Shown here: piece after piece, positions 44,832-63,711 of the stretch
How the letters are laid out: each line of letters opens with the position of its first letter
How positions within the stretch are numbered: position 1 is the first letter of the stretch
Assembly: GCA_032128875.1 (NCBI GenBank)
Contig: JAVLKG010000001.1
Location: 480,001-544,000 of the forward strand
DNA from: Candidatus Melainabacteria bacterium 17Bon1m
Lineage (GTDB): Bacteria > Cyanobacteriota > Vampirovibrionia > Obscuribacterales > Obscuribacteraceae
DNA: 64,000 nt
Direction: 5' to 3'
The notes under the pieces: model-generated
What the model was told of the DNA's origin: nothing
Database searches by the model: none
Seen by the model: the letters and a program-made list of their open reading frames with translations, nothing else
Translations under genes and position numbers: made by a program

Positions 44832-47444
44832 TTAGAAATCCTCTTCGCCCTTCTCCTTGGGGATGCTAAACCAGAAGGCGCAACCGCCAGTTTCGGCGTC
44901 GACGACGCCGACTTTTCCGCCGTGGGCAGCAATGATCATTTTGCAAATGGCGAGGCCGAGTCCGTAGCCTTTGCCTCTCGTCTTCGAGTCTGCAGTTTGG
45001 AAGAAGCGGTCAAAGACTTTGACTTTATTCTCGTCAGAAAGTCCTGGTCCGCTGTCGTTGACGTAAATCTCTGTTTGATAAGTTGTATTTTTGTGCGTGA
45101 TACTAATAGTGGTATCAGGTGGAGAATGGCTTATAGCATTGCCCAGGTAATTAACCAATACTTGTACAAGCCTATGTCTATCTGCTGTTACGACGATAGG
45201 CTTTACTTTATTGACGAGCGCGACTTTGCGTTGCAGCGCCAGCGATTGAACCGACGTGATTGCTTGATCAATTACTTCGGTAATGTCGAAATCCGAGAGT
45301 TGTATCTCAATGCGTCCGGACTCCAAGTTCTCAATTGTGAGCAGATCGTCTACTAATCCAAGCATGCGATCGACATTGGCACGGGCCGAATTTAGCTGCC
45401 GTGTGCCCAGTTCTGATGCCTCTTTTTCTACTTGCATCTGCAAAGCTCTGAGTGTTCCTTGCACGAGAATCAACGGCTCACGCAAATCGCGAGCCACCAT
45501 CTTCATAATGGTTGTGCGTTGTTTCCAAACATCATTTAGTTGCTCGGCCACGTCGTGTAATACAAAGTCTAGATACGAAATTTCGTCCGTGCCCGAAACC
45601 TGCGGTTTAAGCGGTTCTCGCAGTGGCAGGCGTGTTGAATTGTAAGTCAGTTGCTGCATGCGGCTGGAGATATCTCGGCCGAAGAGAAACACAAGAATGA
45701 AAGAGAGAAAGAGGCTGCCGATTATACCGCCGGTGATAATTCCTTCAACTCTCTGGTGCTGCTGCGCCTGAGCCTGGCGTGCGGCTTTCAATCGAGTTTG
45801 TTCTGCTTCCGAAAGTTTCAAAAATTCTTCTTGTCTGTAGATAGCGAACTTCCAAAACGGCATGACGCTGTTGTACAGTTCCATCTCGTCTTGCAGGTTT
45901 TCTTGAGTCATGTACGGGCGCATTTCGACAAATCGTTTGTATTCGACATCACCCAAATTCTTCAGTTTGTCCAGCAGCTTACGCATCTCCGCGTCGTCTT
46001 TGACTAGCTGGTAAAGATTGTCGTACTGGTGTTCTGCCATGTTGCGGTAATAGAGACCCTGTTGATGGTCTGTCGATTTTCCGTACAGCAAGTAGTTGCC
46101 CATAAAACCATAAGAGACCACTCCCATGCTCATCATGCGGTTGAGGTATGTGGCAATTTCTGTTTGTTTGTGCTCATTGATGAGCGCTGCTTCTTGCTCG
46201 TTGATGACTTGACCGATACCAGTCAAAAGCATTGTTGTCAGAGTCAGAGGCACAATCACCAAAAGCATCGCTTTCTTGAATATGCCGGGTTTGAATTTCC
46301 TTTCTTGGGCGACGCGTTCTGCTGATTGCCCGCTCAGCTCAAGCCGCATCAGTTGAGTCAATTCGTGAATGCCTGCATGATTATCTTTTTCGAAGGACTC
46401 CACACCTACTGCGGTTACTTCGGTGACATTGGCTGCCAATTTTTCCAGAGTGAGAAGGTCGTTGACGAGGGCAATCAATCGTTCTACATTCTCGGTACCC
46501 TGCGTTAAAAGCGGCTTGGCTTCCTGGTTTATCTTTTCGCCGTCCGACTTGTCGAAGACCGCCAATGACAAACTAACCGCCGAGAGCGGCGAGCGCATGT
46601 CGTGTGCCACCATCTCCATCAAATGCTTTCTGAATTGCGCGGCTTTGTTTAGCTGTGCAGACGCTTTATGCAAAATATTGTCGAGATACGCAAATTCGTC
46701 ATCGCCAAGAATTTCTTTTTCAAGAGTTACTCTTTTCGGCAGCTTGACGGCGTTTTCGATGAGGATTGCCATCCGCTCAGTGATTTCTTTGTTGAATGCA
46801 AAAAGCAGCAAGATCGCAACAATGAAGTTGACGACCATGCCCCAGTACACCACTTTCTTGGTCAATTCTCGATAGTGTTTTTCACTCGCGATTGATTTGG
46901 CGAGGCGGTCTTGCTCGTTTTGCGAAATTGAATAGAAGCGTTTGTAATTTTCGTACGCTGAGAAAACCAAACTGCGCGCGCTTCTCAACTGGCGAAAAGG
47001 CTCTTCGGCCGACTCTCCGGGAATCCACGGACGCAGCCACTTGAGTTTTTCCATCTCCGGCACTGCCAACTCATAAACTTCGCGCGCCGCACGTTTTCTC
47101 TCTTCGTCATTGCCGGCAAGAGCTAACAGAACTTTGAATTCATCAAGGGCGATTTGGACATAATGCTCGCCCTTTTCGCGTGACTTGTCGTCGCGAGAAA
47201 TCAAATAGCGGCAGTACAATCCGTACCCGACCGTACCTGCTGCAATGAGACGATTGGCGTGGATCGTCTGCTCCAGGCTATTGCGCTGATCGACAAGCGC
47301 TGATTCCGCCTGCTGACTCATCCAGCCGACCCATAGGAGCAAAATAATTTCAATCAACAGCGGGACAAAAACCAGCATTAGCCCCTTGGTAAATATCCGC
47401 CGTTTAAATTTGACGTTTGGGGTTGCTAGATCGGATTCCGCCAT
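44832..47444 (-). CDS. Membrane sensor histidine kinase with a duplicated sensor-DHp module
   Basis: Two TM-periplasmic-TM-HAMP-HisKA modules (VAHDMRSPL; VARDLREPL) and one HATPase (N, DSGPG, FDRF, G.GLGL). Confidence 0.88.
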   Translation of the reverse strand: MAESDLATPNVKFKRRIFTKGLMLVFVPLLIEIILLLWVGWMSQQAESALVDQRNSLEQTIHANRLIAAGTVGYGLYCRYLISRDDKSREKGEHYVQIALDEFKVLLALAGNDEERKRAAREVYELAVPEMEKLKWLRPWIPGESAEEPFRQLRSARSLVFSAYENYKRFYSISQNEQDRLAKSIASEKHYRELTKKVVYWGMVVNFIVAILLLFAFNKEITERMAILIENAVKLPKRVTLEKEILGDDEFAYLDNILHKASAQLNKAAQFRKHLMEMVAHDMRSPLSAVSLSLAVFDKSDGEKINQEAKPLLTQGTENVERLIALVNDLLTLEKLAANVTEVTAVGVESFEKDNHAGIHELTQLMRLELSGQSAERVAQERKFKPGIFKKAMLLVIVPLTLTTMLLTGIGQVINEQEAALINEHKQTEIATYLNRMMSMGVVSYGFMGNYLLYGKSTDHQQGLYYRNMAEHQYDNLYQLVKDDAEMRKLLDKLKNLGDVEYKRFVEMRPYMTQENLQDEMELYNSVMPFWKFAIYRQEEFLKLSEAEQTRLKAARQAQAQQHQRVEGIITGGIIGSLFLSFILVFLFGRDISSRMQQLTYNSTRLPLREPLKPQVSGTDEISYLDFVLHDVAEQLNDVWKQRTTIMKMVARDLREPLILVQGTLRALQMQVEKEASELGTRQLNSARANVDRMLGLVDDLLTIENLESGRIEIQLSDFDITEVIDQAITSVQSLALQRKVALVNKVKPIVVTADRHRLVQVLVNYLGNAISHSPPDTTISITHKNTTYQTEIYVNDSGPGLSDENKVKVFDRFFQTADSKTRGKGYGLGLAICKMIIAAHGGKVGVVDAETGGCAFWFSIPKEKGEEDF

Positions 47445-47524
47445 ATTTGAATTTAGCTCACTGGCCTTCGTGTAAGATATTACTTCAAGCGACAAGAAAT
47501 GCTTGTCCAGTTGCTGGAAGTTCC

Positions 47525-48214
47525 ATGGCGAAGATACTCATCGTAGAAGATGATACCGAACTTGCAAAGAGTATTGCCGACTGGCTTACTCTGGAGAATC
47601 ACACGGTCGAGCATGCCGAGACCGGAGAGGACGGATTGCAGCTGGTAAACGGTTACCAGTACGACCTTTTGATTCTCGACTGGCAACTGCCCGGCATTTC
47701 CGGCGTAGATGTTTGCAAGCAATACAGGCGTCAGGGCGGCGAGATGCCGGTGCTTTTCTTGACGGGCAAATCAGGCGCGGATGCCATTGAGACAGGTCTG
47801 GACGCAGGGGCGGATGACTATCTGGTCAAGCCTTTCCAGGTTCGAGAGCTTTCTGCCCGTATTCGCTCATTAATGCGTCGCCCCAAAGGTTTGCTGCCAA
47901 CCAAGTTGAAAGTGGACTATTTGTCGGTCGAGCTCGAGACGCGTACCGCAATTGTCAACAACGACCGGGTCGTTCTTTCGCCCAAAGAGTTTGCCTTACT
48001 GGAGTTTCTCTTCCGCCATCCCAACCGCTGCTACGGGGCTAAGGCACTGTTGGAAGCCATATGGCCGTCCGAGACCGAAAGTTCGGAAGATACCGTGCGT
48101 ACGATTATGAAAAACCTGCGGCGCAAGATCACGCCGGCTGGATCCGAATGTGTCATAAAAACGGTTCAAGGCTCTGGCTATATTATTGAACAGGCCGTCA
48201 CGTCCGAGTCCTGA
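47525..48214 (+). CDS. OmpR/PhoB-family response regulator
   Basis: ILIVEDD, LDWQLP, GADDYLVKPF, winged helix IKTV.GSGY. Confidence 0.93.
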   Translation: MAKILIVEDDTELAKSIADWLTLENHTVEHAETGEDGLQLVNGYQYDLLILDWQLPGISGVDVCKQYRRQGGEMPVLFLTGKSGADAIETGLDAGADDYLVKPFQVRELSARIRSLMRRPKGLLPTKLKVDYLSVELETRTAIVNNDRVVLSPKEFALLEFLFRHPNRCYGAKALLEAIWPSETESSEDTVRTIMKNLRRKITPAGSECVIKTVQGSGYIIEQAVTSES

Positions 48215-48264: not shown

Positions 48265-48297
48265 TTCACGTTTAATTCACGTGTCGGCACTTACTAT
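48265..48297 (+). promoter_or_regulatory. Shared direct-repeat promoter, copy 3 (perfect repeat)
   Basis: TTCACG-TTTAA-TTCACG-N10-TACTAT. Confidence 0.7.
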
Positions 48298-48303
48298 CAT
48301 GTC

Positions 48304-48585
48304 ATCGAAGACGTCAGTCCGACATCACTGACGACGGCGATACTGAAAGGCTCGAGCAGGTTCACCATCCTCCTCGCTCGCGTCGCGAAAACCAATCGAA
48401 CCGCATTCGGTGGTCTGCCCCACAGTTTGCATTCTGTGCTCGTAAACCGAAATTCACGCGTCGCTTTACGAGCCTCGATTGGATTTATCCCCCGCCCATC
48501 TATAACTAAATAAGAATTGCCTTGCAGGCTAAGAATTTTGTGCAAGGGGGGAGAGGGGCTTTCGAGCCTCTCTCTCGGGCTTTTT
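48304..48585 (+). ncRNA. Candidate structured non-coding RNA (~280 nt)
   Basis: Promoter upstream, no ATG inside, at least 7 helices including a multibranch domain, 3' UUCG hairpin followed by a T-run. Confidence 0.55.
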
Positions 48586-48719
48586 GTATTATTCTCCGCG
48601 CTTATCTATGACGTCTATGGTGGACGTCTCCTGATACCACAGGTAGTTTTACGCCGGTCGTTTATCGCTGGTAATTCGCCAGCCAGCGTTGGGCAATGCC
48701 AGGCATCGCCCCGCCCGAA

Positions 48720-51045: not shown

Positions 51046-52350
51046 ATGTTGGCTAGAAGAAAGTCGCTCAAATCACTATTACTCGCTGCCACGCTGGTTG
51101 GCGCTCTATGCCCGCAAGTATGGGCAGACGAAGTTATCGACACCAATCCGAATCCGCCGGACAACAAGCCTGGCGAGACCACCGTAAAAATTGAGCCGAC
51201 AGATTCTTCCTCGTCGTCGTCTTCGTCGCCTTCTTCGTCGTCGTCGTCTTCTTCTTCTTCTTCTTCTTCTTCTTCTTCTTCTTCTTCTTCTTCTTCTTCT
51301 TCTTCTTCTTCTTCCGACGCTGCAGCTCAAAAGGAATACGATAAAGATTCCAAAATCGTGTCGCCCGAATCGATTCCTGTGTCTAAAGTGCCGGACAAAG
51401 TTGGCATTATCGAAACCAGTCGCGGTTATTACATGGATGTCGAACACTGGAAGGCAAAGCCGAAAGTTGCTCGTCCCAAGATTGGTCTGGCTCTTGGCGG
51501 TGGCGGCGCGAGGGGCGCGGCGCATGTCCCAGTCATTCGTGCTCTCGAGAAAGAAGGCATCAAGTTCGACTACATTGCAGGCACTAGCATTGGCTCTGTT
51601 GTAGGCGGCCTTTATGCTGCCGGTGTTTCTCTCGATGACATGGAAGATGAGTTTGAAAACGGAAAGCTCATGAGGAGCTTCATGACCGTTTCGCTCGCTG
51701 TGAGAATCGCTGTCTCACCAGTGATGCTCATGCCGCGCGTTTTCGGCTCAAAAGAATACGACGGACTTTATCGTGGCAACAAGTTTCGAAAGTATTTGGT
51801 CAAGGGATTATCTTGTCACGACTTGAATATTGAAGATCTGAAAATACCGTTTGCGGCAGTTTCACTGAATCTTTTGGATGGCAAGCCTTACATGATTCGC
51901 AAAGGCAATCTTGGATTTGCAATGCAGTCTAGCTCTGCTGTGCCTGGCTTGAGAAAACCAGTGGAAATCGGTGATTATTTGTTTGTTGATGGTGGCGCGC
52001 TCTGCAATCTGCCCGTGAAGCAAGTGCGCGAGATGGGCGCTGATTTTGTTATCGCAGTGAACATCGATCAACCCTTTCCAGCCGCGAAGAAAGAGGAGTT
52101 TCGCAAGATTGGCAGTGTCACCACTCGAATGCTCAACTGGGACCTGTGGGAGATGGACATGCCTCAATCCCAACTTGCCGACATCACGATTCAACCCGAC
52201 ACAACAGGTGTAAGCTTGATTTCCACGAAGAAATCTGATGCAGTCAAGTGCGTCAAGGCTGGAGAGAAAGCCGTGCAAGAAGCTCTGCCTCTGCTGCGCG
52301 AGAAGCTGAAAAACTACGGCATTGCTACGTCATCTCAACAGAGCGAATAA
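51046..52350 (+). CDS. Exported patatin-like phospholipase with a poly-Ser linker
   Basis: GGGARG, GTSIG, DGG; signal peptide; GAGG RBS. Confidence 0.9.
   Translation: MLARRKSLKSLLLAATLVGALCPQVWADEVIDTNPNPPDNKPGETTVKIEPTDSSSSSSSSPSSSSSSSSSSSSSSSSSSSSSSSSSSSSDAAAQKEYDKDSKIVSPESIPVSKVPDKVGIIETSRGYYMDVEHWKAKPKVARPKIGLALGGGGARGAAHVPVIRALEKEGIKFDYIAGTSIGSVVGGLYAAGVSLDDMEDEFENGKLMRSFMTVSLAVRIAVSPVMLMPRVFGSKEYDGLYRGNKFRKYLVKGLSCHDLNIEDLKIPFAAVSLNLLDGKPYMIRKGNLGFAMQSSSAVPGLRKPVEIGDYLFVDGGALCNLPVKQVREMGADFVIAVNIDQPFPAAKKEEFRKIGSVTTRMLNWDLWEMDMPQSQLADITIQPDTTGVSLISTKKSDAVKCVKAGEKAVQEALPLLREKLKNYGIATSSQQSE
51205..51315 (+). repeat. TCN/TCT trinucleotide tract (36 Ser + 1 Pro)
   Basis: 22 consecutive TCT at 51247-51312. 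Confidence 0.95.
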
Positions 52351-53284: not shown

Positions 53285-55096
53285 CTATGTAACTGCGGTT
53301 TGATTTCCGTTGGTGTTTGGATTTGTCAGCGGGGGCATTTTGATTGGGTCGTTCCAAACACCGGTGACCGGGTTGAACGTTTTGCTGTGAGTATTGCGGT
53401 ACTCGGATACGTAAATCGGGTCGATGCCTTCGATGCCTTCGAGTCCGAGCAATCTTCCTGTCGAAGCGACTTCTTGCGGTGGGAGTGGAACGAGTTTGGG
53501 GTCCACTGCGGCAACGCGGATTGGTTTGTTGGGAACTGTGAGGAAAGCAGGAGCGACGTTCGGTTTGCGAATTCCGTTTTCGTCCAGGTCGGCAACTTGC
53601 GTTTTCGGCTTCGGAAGCAGTTGTGTTCTTGCTGCAACTTGCGTCGGTGTTTGATCCGGAACGATGTTCGGAGTGGTATTTGGGGTGGTGTTCGGAGTAG
53701 TGTTGTTCGAGCCGGTATTGCTGCTGCCGCTCTTCTTGCCACCCTTGCCGCCTTTTCCGCCACCTTTGCCAGCTTGTTGAGCTGCTTTGGCGCCGAGTCT
53801 TTCGGCTTCGGAGGCTGCACCGCGCATCAGACCAGCGAAGTCGAATGCATACTTAACAGCTGCTGTGGCGAGGAAGTTGCAAGCGCTGACGATGTAGAGA
53901 CCGCTGGAAGCTTCGCTTTTAGTAAGGGCGAGGATGAGGATGACGACGTTCCAGAAGAAAGACCAGAATGCCAGAGTGATTACGCCTTGGCACCATGCCG
54001 GGAATGCGTCTCTGAAGAGCTTCATCGGCCAGACCCAGAGCGCTGCCATGATTGGTCCGACGAAGAAGAGGTAGTACATGAACGCCATTTGGAAGGCGGT
54101 GAGGATAGACCATGCAGTGTTGATGCCGGCGTTGGACATGAACATAGCCATGCGCATACCGAGCGAACCTTGGCTCATGGTTCCGTCGTCGCGGTTGGCT
54201 GGAACTTCATTGAGACCGACGCAAGGATCAACCAGTTTGCCCCACATCATTCCTTCGCCTTTGGCGAAAGGCTCGTTGCCGCGGGGGGAAGTGTCGGCTG
54301 GCGGGAGGTTGGCGATGCTGCCGTCGTTTTCAGACAAGGAGCGAACACCGAAAGCGCGGATTTCAGCGCACATCGCATCTTGGTACATGTCGGTGCCTTG
54401 AATGCGGCGGTACTCGGAAGCGATGGTGTACTGGAGGCTATTGCCGAGGTCGATTGAGTAGTTGACGACGAGGTAGGTGCTGGGGACGAGGAAAACGCCG
54501 ATGATTGCGCGTTGGATGCCTTCGAGTGGGCTAGCTTGTCCGACCATGCACGGATTGCCTTGGGCGATGATCGCTCTGACTTGTGTGAGCACTGCGCCTG
54601 GAAGAATGAGAAGCAGAGCCATCGGTACGAAGAATCCGTCGCGGAGTCTGTTCCAACGGTTGCCACCTTCGGTGGTGAAGTTCTTCATCACGCGCTGGCA
54701 GTAGTCGATTGCTTGAATGGCTTGCTCGCGAGCAATTTCACCAGCATTGTTGCCAGCTTGATTTTGTTGAGCTTGCTGGGTTGCTTGTGCTTGCGGAACA
54801 GAGTTGCTGGGTTTTTTCTGTTTTGCTACGGTTCTGTCTGCTCTGTTTTCCATAACACGAGCTTGCTGCGTGTTGTTCCACAGTCCAGGAACGAGCTTCA
54901 GCGATTCTGCCGTTGCATCGAGCTGGGGCATACCCACGTAGGTGTCCCAGTTTCTGTTTTGTACAGAGAGTGGGTCGCCTTTGGCGTTGGCATCAAAACA
55001 AAAAGCAGTCACTACGAACAGTGCTGCCATCAAAGCAAGTACAACCGACTTGGCTGATTTGTTATCGGTGAAAACCGAAGAAACGCTGCGTGTCAT
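53285..55096 (-). CDS. VirB6/TrbL-like polytopic membrane protein, type B2
   Basis: Signal/TM N-terminus; conserved core (AIDYC..NFTT.GGN.WN, FVP..L, GPIMAALW.WP..F..W...TL.FW); Pro/Gly-rich tail. Confidence 0.7.
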   Translation of the reverse strand: MTRSVSSVFTDNKSAKSVVLALMAALFVVTAFCFDANAKGDPLSVQNRNWDTYVGMPQLDATAESLKLVPGLWNNTQQARVMENRADRTVAKQKKPSNSVPQAQATQQAQQNQAGNNAGEIAREQAIQAIDYCQRVMKNFTTEGGNRWNRLRDGFFVPMALLLILPGAVLTQVRAIIAQGNPCMVGQASPLEGIQRAIIGVFLVPSTYLVVNYSIDLGNSLQYTIASEYRRIQGTDMYQDAMCAEIRAFGVRSLSENDGSIANLPPADTSPRGNEPFAKGEGMMWGKLVDPCVGLNEVPANRDDGTMSQGSLGMRMAMFMSNAGINTAWSILTAFQMAFMYYLFFVGPIMAALWVWPMKLFRDAFPAWCQGVITLAFWSFFWNVVILILALTKSEASSGLYIVSACNFLATAAVKYAFDFAGLMRGAASEAERLGAKAAQQAGKGGGKGGKGGKKSGSSNTGSNNTTPNTTPNTTPNIVPDQTPTQVAARTQLLPKPKTQVADLDENGIRKPNVAPAFLTVPNKPIRVAAVDPKLVPLPPQEVASTGRLLGLEGIEGIDPIYVSEYRNTHSKTFNPVTGVWNDPIKMPPLTNPNTNGNQTAVT

Positions 55097-55129
55097 GTAT
55101 GCAGTGCCTGGGGGGTGGGGGACCTTTAG

Positions 55130-55162
55130 ATATTAAAGAGGAGATCGTGAAAACCACGTGAA
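55130..55162 (-). promoter_or_regulatory. Shared direct-repeat promoter, copy 5
   Basis: Minus strand reads TTCACG-TGGTT-TTCACG-N10-TAATAT. Confidence 0.7.
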
Positions 55163-55396: not shown

Positions 55397-58060
55397 CTAT
55401 TTGCTGTCACCCGCTTTGTCAGCCAGTTCCGCAGCTTTCTGACCAGCTGCTTTGACGAGTCCACCGAAGTCGAATGCGTATTTGACAGACGCTGTGGCGA
55501 GGAAATTGATGGCTGTCACCATGAAGATGCCTGTGTCGTCGGTCCCTTTGAAGCACGCTAGAAGCAAGATTGTGGTGCTCCAGAACAAACTCCAGAAGCA
55601 CAGCGTGACTACGCCTTCAACCCAGCTGCCGAACGCGTCTCGAAGGAATTTCATTGGCCACACCCAGAGCGCGGCCATGATTGGTCCTACAAAGAAAAGG
55701 TAATAGAAAAATGCCATTTGGAATGCGCAGAGAATTGACCAGCCTGTGCACATCGCTGCGTTGGTCGTGTTTAGCAGTGAACGTACAGCAACGTTGGAGG
55801 ACTCGATACTGGCGTCGTCTCTGTTCGCTGGAACCAGGTGTAGTCCCGAACAGGGGTCTTCTAATTTGCCCCATATTCGCGCTTCTGCTTTTGCGAAGAT
55901 ACCCTGCGGATTTCGAGGTGTGAAGTCCCATGGTGGGGTGTTGAGCGAACTATCGTTCTCTGACACATAGCGAGGACCAAAGGCGCGAATTTCAGCGCAC
56001 ATGGCGTCCTCGTACATGTCTGTTTGGAACAGCCGCTTGTACTCATCAGCAACGGTAAATTGAATACTGTTGCCTAAGTCAATCGCGTAGTTACAGATTA
56101 AATAGCTTCCCGGAATTAAGAAAACAGCTATCATGCCGCGCTGCATTCCATCGATTGGGCTGACTTGCCCAACGATAGGCGAACCTTGCGAAATAATCGC
56201 ACGCACTTGGCACACGACTGCGCCTGGCAGCAAAATAAGAATCGCCATCGGCACGAAGACACCATCGCGGAACCTGTTCCACTTATTGCCGCCTTCGGTT
56301 GTGAAATTCCTCATGAAGCGTGAGCAATAGTCGATAGCTTGTACCGCTTGTTCTCTCGCGATGTCTGCAGCGGAGTTACCTGCTTGGTTTGCTTGTGCTT
56401 GCCCTGATGCTTTTGCTGCTGGAGTTGAGTTTTTCGGTTGACGAGCCAACCCGGCCATCCGCTCTGCTGCTAGGAACTGAGTCTTTTGAATCTGGTCGTT
56501 CGTAGCAAGTGCAGTGTCTGCTGCCAAAGCTTTTGCCTTAGCAGCAGCTTCTCGCATGTAGGTCGTTTTATAGACCTCGTTCTGCAAAATGTTTGCGTTG
56601 TTCTGCCTGTTTTGATTTTGGCTTTGCTGGTTGCCTTGCGACTGCCCGCCACCGTTGTTGCCGCCGCCATTGTTGCCACCATTGCCGCCTCCGGCCCCGT
56701 TACCGCCTCCGCCGTTGTTGTTTCCAACTCCAAAGGCGCCGCCACCTTGCGGCAAATATTGCTGCAGTTGTTGCTGCAAATTTTGGTTATTGGGCTGTTG
56801 CTGAAGCGCATTTTGCATCGCTTGCTGACGCGCGAGACGCTGCGCAGCCAGCGCTTGCTGTGTCCGCTGCTGCGGTGTCAGTTGCGACTGTCCTTGCGGC
56901 TGATACCCACCTGCTTGTGGGGTGAACGTAACCGCTGGCTGCCCCGTCGTGCCACCAGGCAGTGTTACTCCGCCACCGCCTTGGGGTACCTGTGCTCCCG
57001 GAAACGGAAGATTCCCTAACTGTGGAAGTTGAGGAAACTGCAGGTTCGGAAATGGAAGTTGTGGTAATTGAATTTGAGGACCGCCCGGCAATTGAAGCGT
57101 CGGGAGGTTGGCGGAAACATTAGGCGCCTGGCCCTGAATGGTGGGAAGTTGTCCCTGGACGTTGACACCTAATTTAGGAACTTGAGCCTTTAGTAAAGGC
57201 GCTTGACCTTGCAGTGTGGGCAGCTGTCCGTTGACGCGAACATTGAGACTGCCCTGGGCACTTCCGTTTCCGCCCCTGACGCGGCCATTCACGCTCAGCC
57301 CGTTTCCATTCGCGGTGGCACGGATACTGCCGCTGGAGTTGCCTCCATTGTTTCCGCTGGCACTTCCGCGGACGTTTCCGCCAGCACTTGCACTAATGCT
57401 TCCGCTGCCGCCGCCGTTTCCACCTGAATTTGCACTGATGCTTCCGCTGGCATTGCCCCCAGCGCTTCCATTGGCGTTTCCACTTATACTTCCGCTGGCG
57501 TTTCCACCGGCATTACCACCAAAACTGCCGCTCGCACTGCCGCTCACACTGCCGCCGCCCTGTGCTTGTGAGCTTGAACCAAAAACGGTGACGCCGCTGC
57601 CCGGTGCGGGAGTTGTGTAGCCGGTTTTGCCTTTCTTGTTATTTTTTGCGACTTTGCCTTGACCAGCTTGTTGCCCCTGTGAATTTTGCTGGGTGGTTTG
57701 AGTCGGATTTTGGCGAAGCAATTGCAATAGACTTTGCATTTGCTTTTGGTTTTGCATCTGTTTTAGTAAAGCTTGCTGATGTTGCAGCTCCTGCTGCCCC
57801 ACTGCAGGCTGAGAGCCTGAACTGGAGCCAGCCTTGGCTTGAGCACTGGTGCCTGAAACTGATCCCGAAACAGATACGGAACCAGAGCCAGAACCGGAAC
57901 CGGAACTGGAACCCTTCTTGCAATGCGCAGGCTTCTTGATCGGTGCCCCTTTGTCACAAGAATGCGTTTGCGCGGTTGCGCCCACTGTCGACACTAAAAT
58001 TGCCCCAAGTGTCAGCAGGCTGTAGGCGATTGATAATCTTCGGTATTTCAAGGAAGTCAC
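55397..58060 (-). CDS. VirB6/TrbL-like membrane protein, type B1, with a long Gly/Ser/Asn/Gln-rich N-terminal region
   Basis: GTG start with GGAG RBS; same conserved core; low-complexity repeats. Confidence 0.7.
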   Translation of the reverse strand: MTSLKYRRLSIAYSLLTLGAILVSTVGATAQTHSCDKGAPIKKPAHCKKGSSSGSGSGSGSVSVSGSVSGTSAQAKAGSSSGSQPAVGQQELQHQQALLKQMQNQKQMQSLLQLLRQNPTQTTQQNSQGQQAGQGKVAKNNKKGKTGYTTPAPGSGVTVFGSSSQAQGGGSVSGSASGSFGGNAGGNASGSISGNANGSAGGNASGSISANSGGNGGGSGSISASAGGNVRGSASGNNGGNSSGSIRATANGNGLSVNGRVRGGNGSAQGSLNVRVNGQLPTLQGQAPLLKAQVPKLGVNVQGQLPTIQGQAPNVSANLPTLQLPGGPQIQLPQLPFPNLQFPQLPQLGNLPFPGAQVPQGGGGVTLPGGTTGQPAVTFTPQAGGYQPQGQSQLTPQQRTQQALAAQRLARQQAMQNALQQQPNNQNLQQQLQQYLPQGGGAFGVGNNNGGGGNGAGGGNGGNNGGGNNGGGQSQGNQQSQNQNRQNNANILQNEVYKTTYMREAAAKAKALAADTALATNDQIQKTQFLAAERMAGLARQPKNSTPAAKASGQAQANQAGNSAADIAREQAVQAIDYCSRFMRNFTTEGGNKWNRFRDGVFVPMAILILLPGAVVCQVRAIISQGSPIVGQVSPIDGMQRGMIAVFLIPGSYLICNYAIDLGNSIQFTVADEYKRLFQTDMYEDAMCAEIRAFGPRYVSENDSSLNTPPWDFTPRNPQGIFAKAEARIWGKLEDPCSGLHLVPANRDDASIESSNVAVRSLLNTTNAAMCTGWSILCAFQMAFFYYLFFVGPIMAALWVWPMKFLRDAFGSWVEGVVTLCFWSLFWSTTILLLACFKGTDDTGIFMVTAINFLATASVKYAFDFGGLVKAAGQKAAELADKAGDSK

Positions 58061-58091
58061 TTTAGAATTTCTCCGGGTCGAAAACCAATGA

Positions 58092-59633
58092 TTAAGCTCT
58101 ACCTTGGTGGTGCGGCGAGCCGCCTTTCTTACCGCCACTGGCGCCATTTTCACTGGCTTCTCTGGCTTTTTCGAGCAGTCTGTCGACCAATTCGCCCGGT
58201 TTTAATTCGAATGGTGCAAAGGGTACGTACATCATCATAACCATGAAGCACATGAGCATGAGTCCTTCCCACTCTGTGTTTGGTACATATTCACCAATTT
58301 CTCTGAGCCAAGAAATACGGGTGACCATGACAAACACAATCAGGACCCACCAGAATCTCCAAAGAGATAGTGTTACTACTGCATTTACCCAATTTATAAA
58401 GACTGGTTTGAATAATCTGCCTACGCTACCCGGCCATGCATAGAGGGCGGCGGCGATAGGTCCCATCAAAAGAAGGTAGCAGCTCATTGCCAACTGGAAT
58501 GCTGCGAGGATGAGCAAGCCAACTCCCATAGACATATTGATCATGCCGGAAGCCATTTGGAAGGTTTGATCTTTAAATTCTTGCGGATCGAGACCGTCTC
58601 TGAGTTGACCTCTGGCTTCTTTGGCTTGTTGCTGACCAAGTGCCCATTGAACGACTTCATTTGCAGTGAATTGCTGTGCGATTGCATAGGTCATCGAGTT
58701 ACCGACGTCAATCGAGTAGCTCATGATCAATTGAGTAGAAGGAATAAGGAAAAGAGCAATCATTGCGCGGAGGATATGTCCCAGCGGTCCGCCTTGGTTG
58801 TCTTCGTCAGGATTTGCGAATTGGGAGATCATCAGCTTCATTTGAAGGATGACGGCTCCCGGTACGAGAAGGAGAAGAGCCATCGGCAGGTAAACATGGC
58901 GGTACATTTGCTGCACCATGCCGATTGCTTGTGATACCGGACGGAAAGGAGCGCGGGTGCTGCCGGTTGTGCCGACTGCTTCGTTGGCTACATTTATGTT
59001 GCCTGCCAGAAGCATCGGGATGTAATCGGAGAGTGCATCGCAGTTGCCATTTTGCATGGCATCGCCCGCTGCCTGCATTTGACCTTGCATGTCGCTAACT
59101 GCGTTGGGTATTGCTTGCTGGGGAGCGCCACCGATTGCTACTTGCTGTGTTGTTGCATTGTCGGCCGCCAAGGCTTGCTGTGGGTTGCCTGCCGGAGTGC
59201 GAGGATAAGTAGGTTGTTCTTTGGTGAAGTTGTTTTGGTATCCCTTATTACCTGTGTTAGAACCTTCTTGGTTCTTCTTGCGCTGCTTCATCATTTCGAT
59301 AGTAAGGGTGTAATCGCGAAGTCTCGTTCTATCCGGAGCCGGCTTCGACTCGTGAACGTATGGGGTGCCTTCGCAATTAGAATCCGGACGCGGCTGAGCA
59401 TCGTGAAGAGCTGACAACGGGTGGTCTTGGTTCCAGCGTCTTTGCTGCTGGGTGAGAGAGTTGCCTTGTCTTTGAGCCAAAGCATCTTGAGCGACGGCGC
59501 CGAACATGATGACCATCAAGATCGCAAGCGCGAGGGTCTTGGTCATTTGACCGACCTTTGCTGCTTTGGCGATGTTGGTAAGGAGGTTACGAGTAAAAGC
59601 CGACTCGTCCGGCGAAAAAACGCGGTTTGTCAT
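58092..59633 (-). CDS. VirB6/TrbL-like membrane protein, type A
   Basis: YLPMALLLLVPGA, YSIDVGNS, MGPIAAALYAWP..F..W...TL.LW. Confidence 0.7.
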   Translation of the reverse strand: MTNRVFSPDESAFTRNLLTNIAKAAKVGQMTKTLALAILMVIMFGAVAQDALAQRQGNSLTQQQRRWNQDHPLSALHDAQPRPDSNCEGTPYVHESKPAPDRTRLRDYTLTIEMMKQRKKNQEGSNTGNKGYQNNFTKEQPTYPRTPAGNPQQALAADNATTQQVAIGGAPQQAIPNAVSDMQGQMQAAGDAMQNGNCDALSDYIPMLLAGNINVANEAVGTTGSTRAPFRPVSQAIGMVQQMYRHVYLPMALLLLVPGAVILQMKLMISQFANPDEDNQGGPLGHILRAMIALFLIPSTQLIMSYSIDVGNSMTYAIAQQFTANEVVQWALGQQQAKEARGQLRDGLDPQEFKDQTFQMASGMINMSMGVGLLILAAFQLAMSCYLLLMGPIAAALYAWPGSVGRLFKPVFINWVNAVVTLSLWRFWWVLIVFVMVTRISWLREIGEYVPNTEWEGLMLMCFMVMMMYVPFAPFELKPGELVDRLLEKAREASENGASGGKKGGSPHHQGRA

Positions 59634-59667
59634 TCGTGGGCTCTGGGGGCGTCAGGGCTACACGAAG

Positions 59668-59700
59668 ATAGTAGTTAGGGGAACGTGAAAGTAGCGTGAA
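59668..59700 (-). promoter_or_regulatory. Shared direct-repeat promoter, copy 6
   Basis: Minus strand reads TTCACG-CTACT-TTCACG-N10-TACTAT. Confidence 0.7.
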
Positions 59701-59890: not shown

Positions 59891-62344
59891 CTAAGACCAC
59901 CAGCTATTGCTCAGTGCTTGTGGCACTGGAGGCTTGACTGGGGTCTCTGCCTGCGCCCAGGCGCCGCGCTGACGCAGGACTGTGCCGAGAGCGTGGTTGA
60001 GATTCGGTTTGCGAGATTCGGGAGCGGACCGCCCCTGAAGGTCGCTAGTAAAATCAGCGACTGTGACGAGTACTTCTTCCTGCGGCTCGAACGATTGCTG
60101 GGTGTTTGGCACCAGGCTAAAACCAGTGAGAGGTGGTGCACTGACGGGCGGCGCCGTGGCTGCAGCTGCTTCTGCGACTGTTTGCAGCTTGGAGAGCAAT
60201 TGCTGAGGCGTCAGCGCTACGCCGGATGGAACTTTGGCAAATCCGGCCGCAGGCTGTCCGCTCACCATTGGGGGCGGCGGGTAATTGAAGCGCTGGTCTC
60301 TGAGTGCGGCGATTCTAGGATCATCGTTCGAGTTCATTTCTGACTCCTGATTGGGGGTGGAGGTGGAGGTGGAGGATGGGGAGAAGTCTTCTGCTTCTAT
60401 TTCTGCTTTTACTTTTTCTAGATAGATAAGATCCGGATCTTGGTGCGGGACGCTCGCCGGATAGTGCATCACGTTCTGAATCGAGTTGCCGAGCACGCTG
60501 CCGATTGTGTTTCTCGGCAATGGCGCAACCGGATGTCCGGATGAAGGCGGTGCCGCACAGACGGGGTCATTCCAAACACCGGTTTCTTTGTTGAGCGTGC
60601 ATTTTGTTTCGACTGGTGTTTCTTGTACGTCAGGAGACCAGCCAGTCATTGGGTCGGAAAAGGCGATGCGAGGTGCGGCAGGTTGGATTGATTCGGCGGG
60701 GGTTGCAGGAACAGCAGGCACGACCGGAGCGACGGGGGCTGCCAGCGGTGGTTTTGAAACGTTTTGGGGAGAAACGAGCGGCATTGGTCCTTTCGCATTA
60801 GCTTTGAGCGGGGCCGCTGGAACCTTGGGCAATTCATTGCCCTCGTCATCGTGAGTAACTGTGAATCCTGCCATTCTGGCAGCGATTGGAGCAGCGCTGG
60901 CGACTTTGTCCGGAGCCGCTGCAGGAGCGCTATTTTGTTTGCTGCCGGCGCCTTTCGAGCCACCTTTCTTGCCACCCTTGCCGCCGCCTTTGCCACCACC
61001 GCCGCCACCACCTTCCGCGCCTGCTGCAACTTCAGCGCCGATCATTTCGCACTGTTGAACAGCGCTCTTCATGATGGCAGCGCAGTCAAATGCATGTTTT
61101 ACAGAGGTCGTCGCGAGTACGTTCAGCGCAGTCACCATGTATAGACCGGTCGAAGCTTGTGCTTTGGTCATTGCCAGAAGGCAGATGGTGATTTGCCAGA
61201 GGAAACTCCAGAACGCCAGCGTAATGCAGCTTTCAACCCAGGTGGGGAATGCTTGTTTGAACATTTGGGTCGGCCATGCCCAGAGCCCGGCCATGATCGG
61301 ACCAGCGAAGTAGAGGTAGTAAAAGAAAGCCATTTGGAACGCGGTTAGCATTGCCCAACCGGCGCAAAGCCCTGCGTTAGCTGTGTACATGCCCATGCGT
61401 GTTGCAATCGATGCTTGCGGCATGATGGTGTCTTCGCGGTTGGGCGGAACAAGATAGAGACCGGTGCAGGGATCGCTGATTTTGCCCCAAAGGCGACCTT
61501 CAATTTTCGCGAACGGCTCGTTGCCGCGGGGGGAAAGATCTGGGGAGATATCTTTGCTCAGCGAACCTTCGGCTTCAGCCAAATAACGAACACCGAATGC
61601 GCGGATTTCTGCGCACATTGCGTCGCGGTACATGTCACCGCCGACGATGCGCGAGTATTCTGAACTGACTGTGTAGTGAAGGCTGTTGCCCAGGTCGATG
61701 GCGAAGTTTGTGACGAGGCAGCTTGCCGGAACCAGCGCGACTGCAATGATTCCGCGCTGTATACCTTCGAGCGGGCTGGTCGCACCGAGGACCGGGTTGC
61801 CTTGCGCCATGATTGCTCTTACTTGTGTAAGGACGGCACCAGGCAGAATCAGCAAAAGTGCGATAGGCACGAAAACATTGTTGCGGTGTCTGTTCCAACG
61901 GTTGCCGTCCGATGTCGTGAAGTTTTTCATAAAACGCGAAGCGTAGTCGATGGCCATGCACGCCATGTCGCGTGCGATGTCACCGGCTGAGTTGCCGACT
62001 TGGCTTTGACCGGCTTGCGACTCGGCGGCAGCACCCTTGGTGGCATTTTTCGGACGAAGCGATTTTGCTGCAATCAGTTCGGCTCTGTTCTTGGACACTT
62101 GGCCTACTTGCTGGTCCTTTACCTCGCCTTGTTTTTTTGCAAGCGCCTCTGCTTCCTCTGCGAGCTCGTCGGGCTTCATCGCTTGGTTTTGCTCTTCTTC
62201 CATCGACTTCAAATTGGTCTTGTTCACATCTTCAGCAAATGCTTGAGAGTTGCAAGCGAAAAACGAGATGAGTAGCGCGCTCACAAAGGTGAGGACGAAA
62301 CCAGCGTGTTGCATTTTTTGAAGATTGGACTTCGACAATTTCAC
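59891..62344 (-). CDS. VirB6/TrbL-like membrane protein, type B2, fused to a type-C tail
   Basis: Conserved core; GAGG RBS; Pro-rich tail carrying type-C motifs. Confidence 0.7.
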   Translation of the reverse strand: MKLSKSNLQKMQHAGFVLTFVSALLISFFACNSQAFAEDVNKTNLKSMEEEQNQAMKPDELAEEAEALAKKQGEVKDQQVGQVSKNRAELIAAKSLRPKNATKGAAAESQAGQSQVGNSAGDIARDMACMAIDYASRFMKNFTTSDGNRWNRHRNNVFVPIALLLILPGAVLTQVRAIMAQGNPVLGATSPLEGIQRGIIAVALVPASCLVTNFAIDLGNSLHYTVSSEYSRIVGGDMYRDAMCAEIRAFGVRYLAEAEGSLSKDISPDLSPRGNEPFAKIEGRLWGKISDPCTGLYLVPPNREDTIMPQASIATRMGMYTANAGLCAGWAMLTAFQMAFFYYLYFAGPIMAGLWAWPTQMFKQAFPTWVESCITLAFWSFLWQITICLLAMTKAQASTGLYMVTALNVLATTSVKHAFDCAAIMKSAVQQCEMIGAEVAAGAEGGGGGGGKGGGKGGKKGGSKGAGSKQNSAPAAAPDKVASAAPIAARMAGFTVTHDDEGNELPKVPAAPLKANAKGPMPLVSPQNVSKPPLAAPVAPVVPAVPATPAESIQPAAPRIAFSDPMTGWSPDVQETPVETKCTLNKETGVWNDPVCAAPPSSGHPVAPLPRNTIGSVLGNSIQNVMHYPASVPHQDPDLIYLEKVKAEIEAEDFSPSSTSTSTPNQESEMNSNDDPRIAALRDQRFNYPPPPMVSGQPAAGFAKVPSGVALTPQQLLSKLQTVAEAAAATAPPVSAPPLTGFSLVPNTQQSFEPQEEVLVTVADFTSDLQGRSAPESRKPNLNHALGTVLRQRGAWAQAETPVKPPVPQALSNSWWS

Positions 62345-62358
62345 TGTTGATTCCTCGC

Positions 62359-63711
62359 TTACTTGCCGCTCGAAGCTGCTTTGCCCATCTTTTCGCCGAT
62401 TTCGGCCGCTTTCATACCGGCTGCTTTGACCAGTCCGGAGAAGTCAAATGCGTGTTTGACTGAGCCTGTGGCGAGGAAATTCAAAGCCGTTAGCATGAAG
62501 ATGCCCGTGTCGTCTGTGCCTTTGAAGCAAGCGATGAGGAGTACTACTGTTGTCCAAAAAAAGCTCCAGAAGCAGAGGGTAATGACGCCTTCAACCCATA
62601 TGCCGAACGAATCTCTGAACACTTTCAACGGCCAGACCCAAAGACCAGCGAATACAGGACCGATGAAGAACAAGTAGTAAAAGAAAGCTGTTTGGAATGC
62701 GCAGCATATTGTCCAACCGGTATTCGCTGCTGCGTTTGTCGAGAAGAGAACGGCGCGAGCGGCAATTGTTGAAGCCGGCATCGATGCGTCATCGCGGTTG
62801 GGAGGAACCAGGTAGAGACCGGCGCATGGATCGTTGAGTTTGCCCCAGAGTCTGCCTTCTGCAGGTGAGAAGAGACCTGCAAAACGTGGGGCGAGGTCTG
62901 GGTCAGGAACTTTGAGCGAGCCTTCATTTTCCGAAAGATAGCGCACTCCGAATGCGCGAATCTCGGCGCACATCGCATCGTGATACATGTCCGTGCCGCA
63001 CATGTTGCGGTATTCCTGAGCGATTGTGTACTGAAAACTGTTGGCGAGGTCTACGGCGTAATTGACGATCAAGTAGCTGGCGGGGATGAGGAAAACGCCG
63101 ATGAACGAACGTTGAAGACCGTCGATTGGGCTGACTTGACCGACTACCGGATTGCCTTGTGCGATGATGGCGCGCATTTGCGACATTACTGCACCGGGAA
63201 GGAGGAAAAGAATTCCGATCGGTACGAACACGCCATCACGAAAACGATTCCAACGGTTGCCGCCTTCAGTAGTAAAGTTTTTCAAAAAACGCGAGCAGTA
63301 GTCGATTGCTGCGCAACCTTGATCGCGTGCGATGTCGGCTGCAGAATTGCCTGCTTGAGTGGCTTGCGCTTGACCGGTCGCTTTGGCTGTCGGAGCGGTG
63401 TTGCGCGGTTGGTTCATCTGACCGATCATGCGCTCGGTTTGATTCCAGCGTGACATTCGCAGGACGATCGCTTTGAGTTTTTCGGGAGGAAGTTTTGAGA
63501 GCGCTTCGGCGATTGCATCCAAGCGTTCTTTCTTGATTGCCTTGTCGTATTCTTTTGCCGCTTTGACAGATGTCGAGGCGCCGTCTGTTCCCATTTTTTC
63601 TTTCGGGCGTAGTCCTTGAGCCAGACATTCTGGCGCGGCTACCGTGAGAATCAGCATTAGAACTGCCACACCGGCGAGAGCTATTTTTGTGATATTGCCT
63701 GAAGATGACAC
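62359..63711 (-). CDS. VirB6/TrbL-like membrane protein, type B1 (short)
   Basis: Conserved core; FKGTDDTGIFM shared with the 55397-58060 protein. Confidence 0.7.
   Translation of the reverse strand: MSSSGNITKIALAGVAVLMLILTVAAPECLAQGLRPKEKMGTDGASTSVKAAKEYDKAIKKERLDAIAEALSKLPPEKLKAIVLRMSRWNQTERMIGQMNQPRNTAPTAKATGQAQATQAGNSAADIARDQGCAAIDYCSRFLKNFTTEGGNRWNRFRDGVFVPIGILFLLPGAVMSQMRAIIAQGNPVVGQVSPIDGLQRSFIGVFLIPASYLIVNYAVDLANSFQYTIAQEYRNMCGTDMYHDAMCAEIRAFGVRYLSENEGSLKVPDPDLAPRFAGLFSPAEGRLWGKLNDPCAGLYLVPPNRDDASMPASTIAARAVLFSTNAAANTGWTICCAFQTAFFYYLFFIGPVFAGLWVWPLKVFRDSFGIWVEGVITLCFWSFFWTTVVLLIACFKGTDDTGIFMLTALNFLATGSVKHAFDFSGLVKAAGMKAAEIGEKMGKAASSGK

Follow-up and report, generated by a model that had tools for sequence, protein, structure and literature searches.

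A predicted regulatory RNA family of one Obscuribacteraceae genus, with an activator-type promoter beside a two-component system

Our analysis of a 64,000-nucleotide stretch of DNA from Candidatus Melainabacteria bacterium 17Bon1m (the window; all coordinates are positions within it unless stated otherwise) supports the presence, at 48304-48585 on the plus strand, of a conserved, structured, non-coding element that has its own activator-type promoter and its own terminator. With a probability of roughly 0.6, we read this element as a new, genus-restricted family of small regulatory RNA (sRNA) of a familiar kind that is a predicted output of the adjacent two-component system. The genes, promoters and transcript that enter into this reading are the following:

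44832..47444, minus strand: divergent histidine kinase gene, 870 aa, with Pfam HisKA and HATPase_c
47525..48214, plus strand: OmpR/PhoB-family response-regulator gene, with Pfam Response_reg and Trans_reg_C, directly upstream of the RNA
48265..48281, plus strand: regulator box, a direct repeat of two TTCACG units with an 11-bp period in the place of a -35 element, 0 mismatches
48292..48297, plus strand: -10 hexamer TACTAT, 10 nt past the second repeat, invariant across the genus sequences
48304..48585, plus strand: predicted sRNA transcript of ~280 nt, its start placed from the -10 hexamer and its end from the terminator
55130..55162, minus strand: P2 promoter (TTCACG-N5-TTCACG-N10-TAATAT), preceding ORF 53285-55096
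59668..59700, minus strand: P3 promoter (TTCACG-N5-TTCACG-N10-TACTAT), preceding ORF 58092-59633

The promoter in front of the RNA begins 50 nt after the end of the response-regulator gene. Its two TTCACG units (48265-70 and 48276-81 on the plus strand, with N5 between them) form a box that is identical in 12 of 12 genus sequences, and no -35-like hexamer is found at 17-nt spacing from TACTAT, where the bases read CGTTTA. Exact copies of the repeat at 55146-55162 and 59684-59700, both on the minus strand, are likewise followed by a 10-nt gap, a -10 hexamer, a short leader and a long ORF. Across the 7.55-Mb genome the pattern TTCACG-N5-TTCACG-N10-TANNAT occurs at exactly three sites, all at most 12 kb from the response-regulator gene. 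Over the genus, the full pattern gives 40 matches in 13 of 13 genomes (2-4 in each), the 10-nt gap to TANNAT in 40 of 40 being built into the search pattern, and a reversed-pattern control gives 0 matches in all 13. Twelve of the 13 genomes have the sRNA-type promoter, most often with the two operon-type promoters 7-11 kb from it on one contig. The shared promoter claimed in the original prediction is therefore upheld by a three-promoter set that stands beside the two-component genes and recurs across the genus. Its description of a perfect promoter copy facing ~280 nt without an ATG also proved accurate, as the repeat has 0 mismatches and the plus strand holds no ATG in 48302-48590; one ATG, at 48299-48301, falls within the -10/start region.

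Judged by sequence, this layout is that of an activator-dependent promoter of the OmpR/PhoB response-regulator type. In PhoB boxes, a pair of direct repeats spaced by an 11-bp period takes the place of the -35 element (PMC4971064). The promoters studied here share with these Pho-box (class II) PhoB/OmpR promoters the 11-bp direct repeats beside the -10 and the replacement of the -35 by a box at a fixed distance from the -10. They differ in that the repeat is TTCACG and not the E. coli pho-box heptamer. We assign the TTCACG boxes to the adjacent regulator from proximity and co-occurrence only, which makes its binding putative. The bare TTCACG-N5-TTCACG repeat is also enriched beyond these sites, with 14 copies in the 7.55-Mb assembly against ~0.9 expected by simple arithmetic. 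Eleven of these exact repeats lie outside the locus, on contigs C1, C3, C4, C5, C7 and C8; several are followed 10 nt later by a -10-like hexamer, and the one at C1:556838 has a third repeat. These outside repeats may be sites of paralogous regulators, and the genome has at least 28 OmpR-family matches at E<=1e-40.

The regulator itself reached no NCBIfam equivalog cut-off, the best model being RppA (202 vs 250 bits), with PhoB at 178.8 vs 296.2. Its orthologues are 97-100% identical across the genus and have the same range as the RNA: 12 of 13 genus genomes carry both, and the only one without the RNA (G001, 77% complete) is also without the regulator orthologue. The best matches outside the genus, at 61-63% identity, correspond to a paralogue that is also present in this genome. 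The neighbouring kinase shows an internal duplication, in which residues 1-235 resemble ~383-606 at 26% identity and Pfam gives two HisKA stretches. The 80-nt spacer between the divergent kinase and regulator genes (47445-47524) is nearly identical genus-wide and holds no TTCACG-N5-TTCACG box.

Downstream of the promoter, the block conserved among relatives starts at 48302 and ends with the terminator. The plus strand of 48303-48590 folds at -100.4 kcal/mol (z = -3.44, with 1 of 200 shuffles as good), and the minus strand has z = -2.38. A consensus structure computed by RNAalifold from 12 sequences comprises hairpins P1 and P2, a branched P3 (closing helix, P3a and P3b), P4 and P5, as listed here:

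48304..48341, plus strand: P1 hairpin, variable stem with invariant loop CGACAUC (48320-48326)
48349..48384, plus strand: P2 hairpin, CU-rich loop UUCACCAUCCU at 48361-48371 with an invariant CAUCC core
48392..48482, plus strand: P3 multibranch domain, closed by CCAAUCGA/UCGAUUGG, from RNAalifold
48410..48423, plus strand: P3a, GUGG-UCUGCC-CCAC, within P3
48438..48473, plus strand: P3b, within P3, with compensatory changes
48500..48519, plus strand: single-stranded linker with conserved CUAYAA and AAUAAGA, its invariant columns unpaired
48520..48547, plus strand: P4 hairpin CCUUGC/GCAAGG with an A/U-rich loop, invariant in 11 of the 11 sequences that reach it
48549..48585, plus strand: P5 terminator hairpin (12-13 bp, three G-U pairs) and T run, stem invariant in 11 of 11

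Conservation within the RNA is blocky, with invariant loops and junctions between variable stems. The invariant unpaired motifs are CGACAUC in P1, CAUCC in P2, UCUGCC in P3a, GAAAnUCACGC in P3b and CUAYAA…AAUAAGA in the linker. Nine of 12 sequences have CCAUCCUCCU as the P2 loop and 11 of 12 have UCUGCC as the P3a loop, and the P3 closing helix is invariant save for G-U/A-U at one pair. The tetranucleotide CAUC occurs three times (5' CAUCG, the P1 loop CGACAUC and the P2 loop CAUCC), each time invariant in 12 of 12 sequences between neighbouring bases that vary. At the 3' end, the hairpin at 48549-76 has a 12-bp stem with 7 G-C pairs and a loop of 4 and is followed by GGGCTTTTTG, which is the form of an intrinsic terminator. 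Eight of 11 relatives have a broken T run (GGGCAUUUC; tail GGGCATTTC) and with it a weaker U run.

Most of the helices drawn in the original prediction are present, namely CGTCAGT/ACTGACG (48312-18/48327-33), CGAGC/GCTCG, CCTTGCA/TGCAAGG, CCAATCGA/TCGATTGG (48392-99/48475-82), CTCGTAAA/TTTACGAG and the terminator hairpin with its GGGCTTTTTG. Three finer details fared less well in the comparison with relatives. An inner hairpin ACCG/CGGT is found in this genome and its closest relatives, but genus-wide it is GUGG-UCUGCC-CCAC that is conserved instead. The segment CCTCCT, described as resembling an anti-Shine-Dalgarno sequence, persists in 9 of 12 sequences, with CCACCT in its place in one and CCCCT in two, so that the invariant part of the loop is CAUCC. 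Finally, a further TTCACG in an inner loop is not conserved, as CTCACG or ATCACG stands there in 5 of 12 sequences and only TCACGC is kept; we considered this TTCACG as a third regulator site and rejected it on that ground.

Several helices are backed by compensatory changes. Over the full alignment, with one doubtful long-range helix left out, 96.5% of 653 cells are paired. Nine of 56 pairs change on both sides, compared with 3.4±1.3 in shuffled alignments and 1-5 in slid controls. None of 500 shuffles equals the 9 both-side pairs. The set behind these figures consists of 12-13 related sequences from one genus with few independent events, and the shuffle control overstates significance for sequences so related. 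Compensatory changes fall in three helices (P1, P2 and P3b), those in P3b being UA to GC in three sequences and UA to CG in one. Because MAFFT misaligns P1 in three sequences, P1 was checked by single-sequence folds and by a model refit. All 12 single-sequence folds contain both P2 and P1, the latter with CGACAUC in its loop, although the stems differ in sequence. The refit of the 5' domain (model R2) pairs 86.5% of cells against 29-48% in slid controls, with 7 both-side pairs (reached by 3 of 500 shuffles; P1 has 5 and P2 has 2) and 16 both-side cells (reached by 0 of 500), in an alignment that was fitted to the structure and so leans towards it. Because the P3 closing helix, P4 and P5 do not vary, they carry no covariation information either way. 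With regard to strand, G-U cells outnumber A-C cells in the helices by 53 to 2, an imbalance in favour of the plus strand. Three G-U pairs of P5 would become C-A mismatches on the minus strand, and the structure conservation index is 0.67 for the plus strand and 0.60 for the minus strand.

These patterns bear on whether the region encodes a small protein, either through an 82-aa minus-strand ORF or a short plus-strand one, or is the remnant of a decaying gene. The original prediction had itself pointed to the minus-strand ORF at 48297-48545 as the element whose conservation would speak against an RNA. An ORF of 82 aa is indeed present in this genome and one of 81 aa in a close relative. However, the ORF opens with TTG, has no Pfam match and does not keep its frame, being frameshifted or truncated in most other sequences; tblastn splits it across several frames in L006, L008, L009 and L011, and the longest minus-strand ORFs of the relatives differ in start, frame and length. 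No conserved plus-strand ORF was found, since ORFs of at least 10 codons sit at different positions with different lengths and are absent from one genome. The alignment indels of 1, 2, 4 and 5 nt are non-triplet, and the conserved blocks follow helices and loops rather than codons. We consider a coding origin for this region extremely improbable.

The element belongs to no family that we could recognize. A search of the whole window with Rfam 15 (4227 models) gave 0 matches at gathering score, in line with the novelty that had been proposed for it, and the 12 homologous loci likewise gave 0. Matches at E<=10 to SNORD111 (17.9 bits), rli52 (16.7) and SNORD49 (10.5) were taken as chance. Full-text searches found no published work on regulatory RNAs in Melainabacteria or Obscuribacterales.

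The RNA has a narrow distribution. One copy is present in this assembly, and blastn recovers it in 11 of 12 other genus genomes at 76-96% identity; its matches in 48 genomes outside the genus were all 17-37 nt long and are put down to chance. The covariance model R1, built on the RNA core and searched against 104 genomes of the family, finds the RNA in the same 11 genus genomes as blastn and gives no convincing match in the 91 genomes of other genera, where the best hit (20 bits, E 0.069) was taken as chance. Pattern scans of public genome and metagenome collections returned 23 loci, comprising 15 full-length R1 matches with one new variant (L062) and 8 loci that R1 scores at no more than 13 bits and that we set aside as chance matches. 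The records with the RNA carry only Melainabacteria, Obscuribacterales, Obscuribacteraceae, 'Cyanobacteria bacterium' or 'bacterium' titles. The order of the divergent kinase, the regulator and the RNA co-directional with the regulator is kept in 12 of 12 loci. Mean pairwise identities for the parts of the locus are as follows:

40-nt promoter: 0.90
RNA: 0.776
Regulator third codon positions: 0.604
Spacer after the regulator stop codon: 0.515
Spacer towards pfk (19-201 nt long): 0.165

The RNA is conserved above its flanks and above synonymous sites, a sign of selection. We regard a new RNA family of a familiar kind, confined to one genus, as well supported.

The gene order also raises a role in cis, in which the structure would be the 3' UTR of the regulator mRNA and/or a shared convergent terminator region that overlaps the pfk mRNA in antisense at its 3' end. 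The interval from the regulator stop (48214) to 48549 contains no terminator, and the sequence may thus also be part of the regulator mRNA as its 3' UTR. Convergent pfk follows the RNA in 10 of the 11 loci that extend far enough, with its stop 19-201 nt from the RNA end, and the P4 hairpin on the minus strand is followed by a conserved AUUCUUAUU. Against this stand the invariant box and -10 of a promoter that belongs to a three-member set, the covariation in P1, P2 and P3b far from the ends of either gene, and the P5 G-U pairs that favour the plus strand. Moreover, pfk is replaced in one genome and P4-P5 is still identical there. We therefore judge a mainly cis-acting structure to be very unlikely. 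We rejected a leader or riboswitch of a downstream gene because in 10 of 11 loci the gene that follows points towards the RNA, and a single genome has a gene beyond the terminator that reads in the same direction. That genome's locus, L011, has in place of pfk a co-directional 357-aa ORF (L011 382-1455, minus strand) with an N-terminal hydrophobic segment.

A trace of the sequence is found in an RNA library. One metatranscriptome contig of 230 nt corresponds to 48317-48546 with 3 differences and lies wholly inside the predicted RNA; it places this sequence, or that of a close relative, in an RNA library, and such contigs carry no end, strand or abundance information. No contig of that library covers the flanks, an absence to which we give no weight. 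Two runs labelled 'transcriptomic' gave 5.5-kb contigs over the whole stretch at even depth, which we set aside as uninformative, as they may represent DNA or the source sample.

The preferred reading, an sRNA that is an output of the two-component system, takes its functional content from the promoter set. The same promoter layout drives two membrane-protein operons, and on this basis we interpret the RNA as the arm of the kinase/regulator pair that acts after transcription. We infer the transcription start, regulator binding, action in trans and base pairing in this scheme, which would run as follows. By binding the TTCACG repeats, the phosphorylated regulator would activate the RNA and, along with it, the two operons for multi-pass membrane proteins. 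The RNA would then expose its invariant unpaired CGACAUC (P1), its CU-rich P2 loop with CAUCC, and UCUGCC, and these loops would pair in trans with mRNAs, on or close to their ribosome-binding sites or start codons, with neither Hfq nor CsrA. Action in trans through the invariant loops is, in our assessment, the most likely mode. No Hfq or CsrA Pfam domain was detected in the 93%-complete genome, and a divergent cyanobacterial-type Hfq would probably escape the Hfq Pfam model.

Five paralogous multi-pass membrane proteins (53285-55096, 55397-58153, 58092-59633, 59891-62344 and 62359-63711, all on the minus strand) have a conserved core in common (repeat families D1, D2, D4 and D6) and gave no Pfam or NCBIfam match; two of the five come first after a copy of the shared promoter. 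For one of the five proteins, language-model neighbours have TrbL/VirB6-type families (score 0.88), which we treat as a lead only. The leaders at 55097-55130 and 59634-59668, both on the minus strand, and their homologous leaders contain an invariant C-rich motif, CCCCAGGC behind the P2 promoter and GTAGCCCTG.CGCCCCCAGAGC behind the P3 promoter. The sRNA holds an invariant CUGCCCCAC in the same sense as this motif, and the two could constitute a common recognition element. Between the RNA and these operons, 51195-51329 is a long run of TTC/GTC triplets in which a 54-nt unit recurs in 10 overlapping copies. Overlapping ORFs of the two strands contain this run, and its minus-strand reading would give an acidic (Glu/Asp) tract.

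Searches for pairing partners gave little. When each sRNA was folded at full length with the initiation regions of its own regulator and kinase, the duplexes were all long and broken by loops, and they shared no site. Six unpaired segments were screened as seeds over 76,724 candidate initiation regions; self-hits of the locus apart, no perfect match exceeded 12 nt, which is chance level. One seed match spans a start codon (a 249-aa ORF on C2) but pairs with genus-variable bases.

The lack of a convincing mRNA target in these screens leaves room for an RNA that binds or titrates a protein or another RNA rather than pairing with mRNAs, with the repeated unpaired CAUC as the binding site. The recurrence of CAUC at three invariant places among variable flanking bases would suit such a function. 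So would the length and fold, as ~280 nt in several domains is large for a simple seed-pairing sRNA, and so would the 40-nt P4-P5 region, whose invariance goes beyond the need of a terminator. On the other hand, proteins of the CsrA and Hfq types were not found, no candidate partner protein is encoded beside the RNA, and CAUC has only three copies, one of them partly paired in P1. We hold titration to be unlikely. A more ambitious version of the trans-acting scheme seems to us unlikely as well, and slightly more so. It holds that the RNA is a chaperone-independent, multi-domain riboregulator of a genus-specific two-component regulon with TrbL/VirB6-like membrane-protein operons, carried by members of the Obscuribacteraceae, which are uncultured relatives of cyanobacteria that do not photosynthesize. 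In this version the three invariant single-stranded CAUC sites would form a new recognition code for start-codon regions (GAUG) or for an RNA-binding protein.

The closest working analogue for the predicted sRNA is RoxS/RsaE of Bacillus and Staphylococcus. RoxS/RsaE is a trans-acting sRNA that is activated by an OmpR-family two-component regulator (ResDE/SrrAB) and has several unpaired C-rich regions that pair with G-rich Shine-Dalgarno sequences (PMC4409812). The RNA described here resembles it in its response-regulator-type promoter and its C/U-rich loops (CCAUCCUCCU and UCUGCC), in a genome where no Hfq was found. The regulator site of RoxS lies at about -65 (PMC4409812), as opposed to the -35-replacing box of our promoter. 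The present RNA also differs in having no sequence or structure match to it (Rfam scans were empty), in coming from another phylum and in its length of ~280 nt. Rfam holds an RsaE model, and RoxS is a little over 100 nt long. A second comparison is offered by the enterobacterial sRNAs of two-component regulons, OmrA/OmrB and MicF (OmpR-dependent) and MgrR (PhoP-dependent), which act on envelope-related mRNAs, are ~90-110 nt long and depend on Hfq. Here the likeness is in concept, an sRNA belonging directly to a two-component regulon, and the operons co-regulated in our case encode multi-pass membrane proteins. In contrast to these sRNAs, the RNA from this locus is three times longer, has no Rfam match and occurs where no Hfq was found.

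A seed alignment for a new RNA family is now at hand, and its range of one genus gives it modest general importance. For the organism, the locus defines a testable regulon made up of one kinase/regulator pair, three promoters of the same architecture, one RNA and two membrane-protein operons. If the riboregulator reading were true, it would couple expression of an envelope or secretion apparatus to translation control. The locus offers a compact entry to signal transduction and RNA regulation in a lineage that is known almost only from metagenomes.
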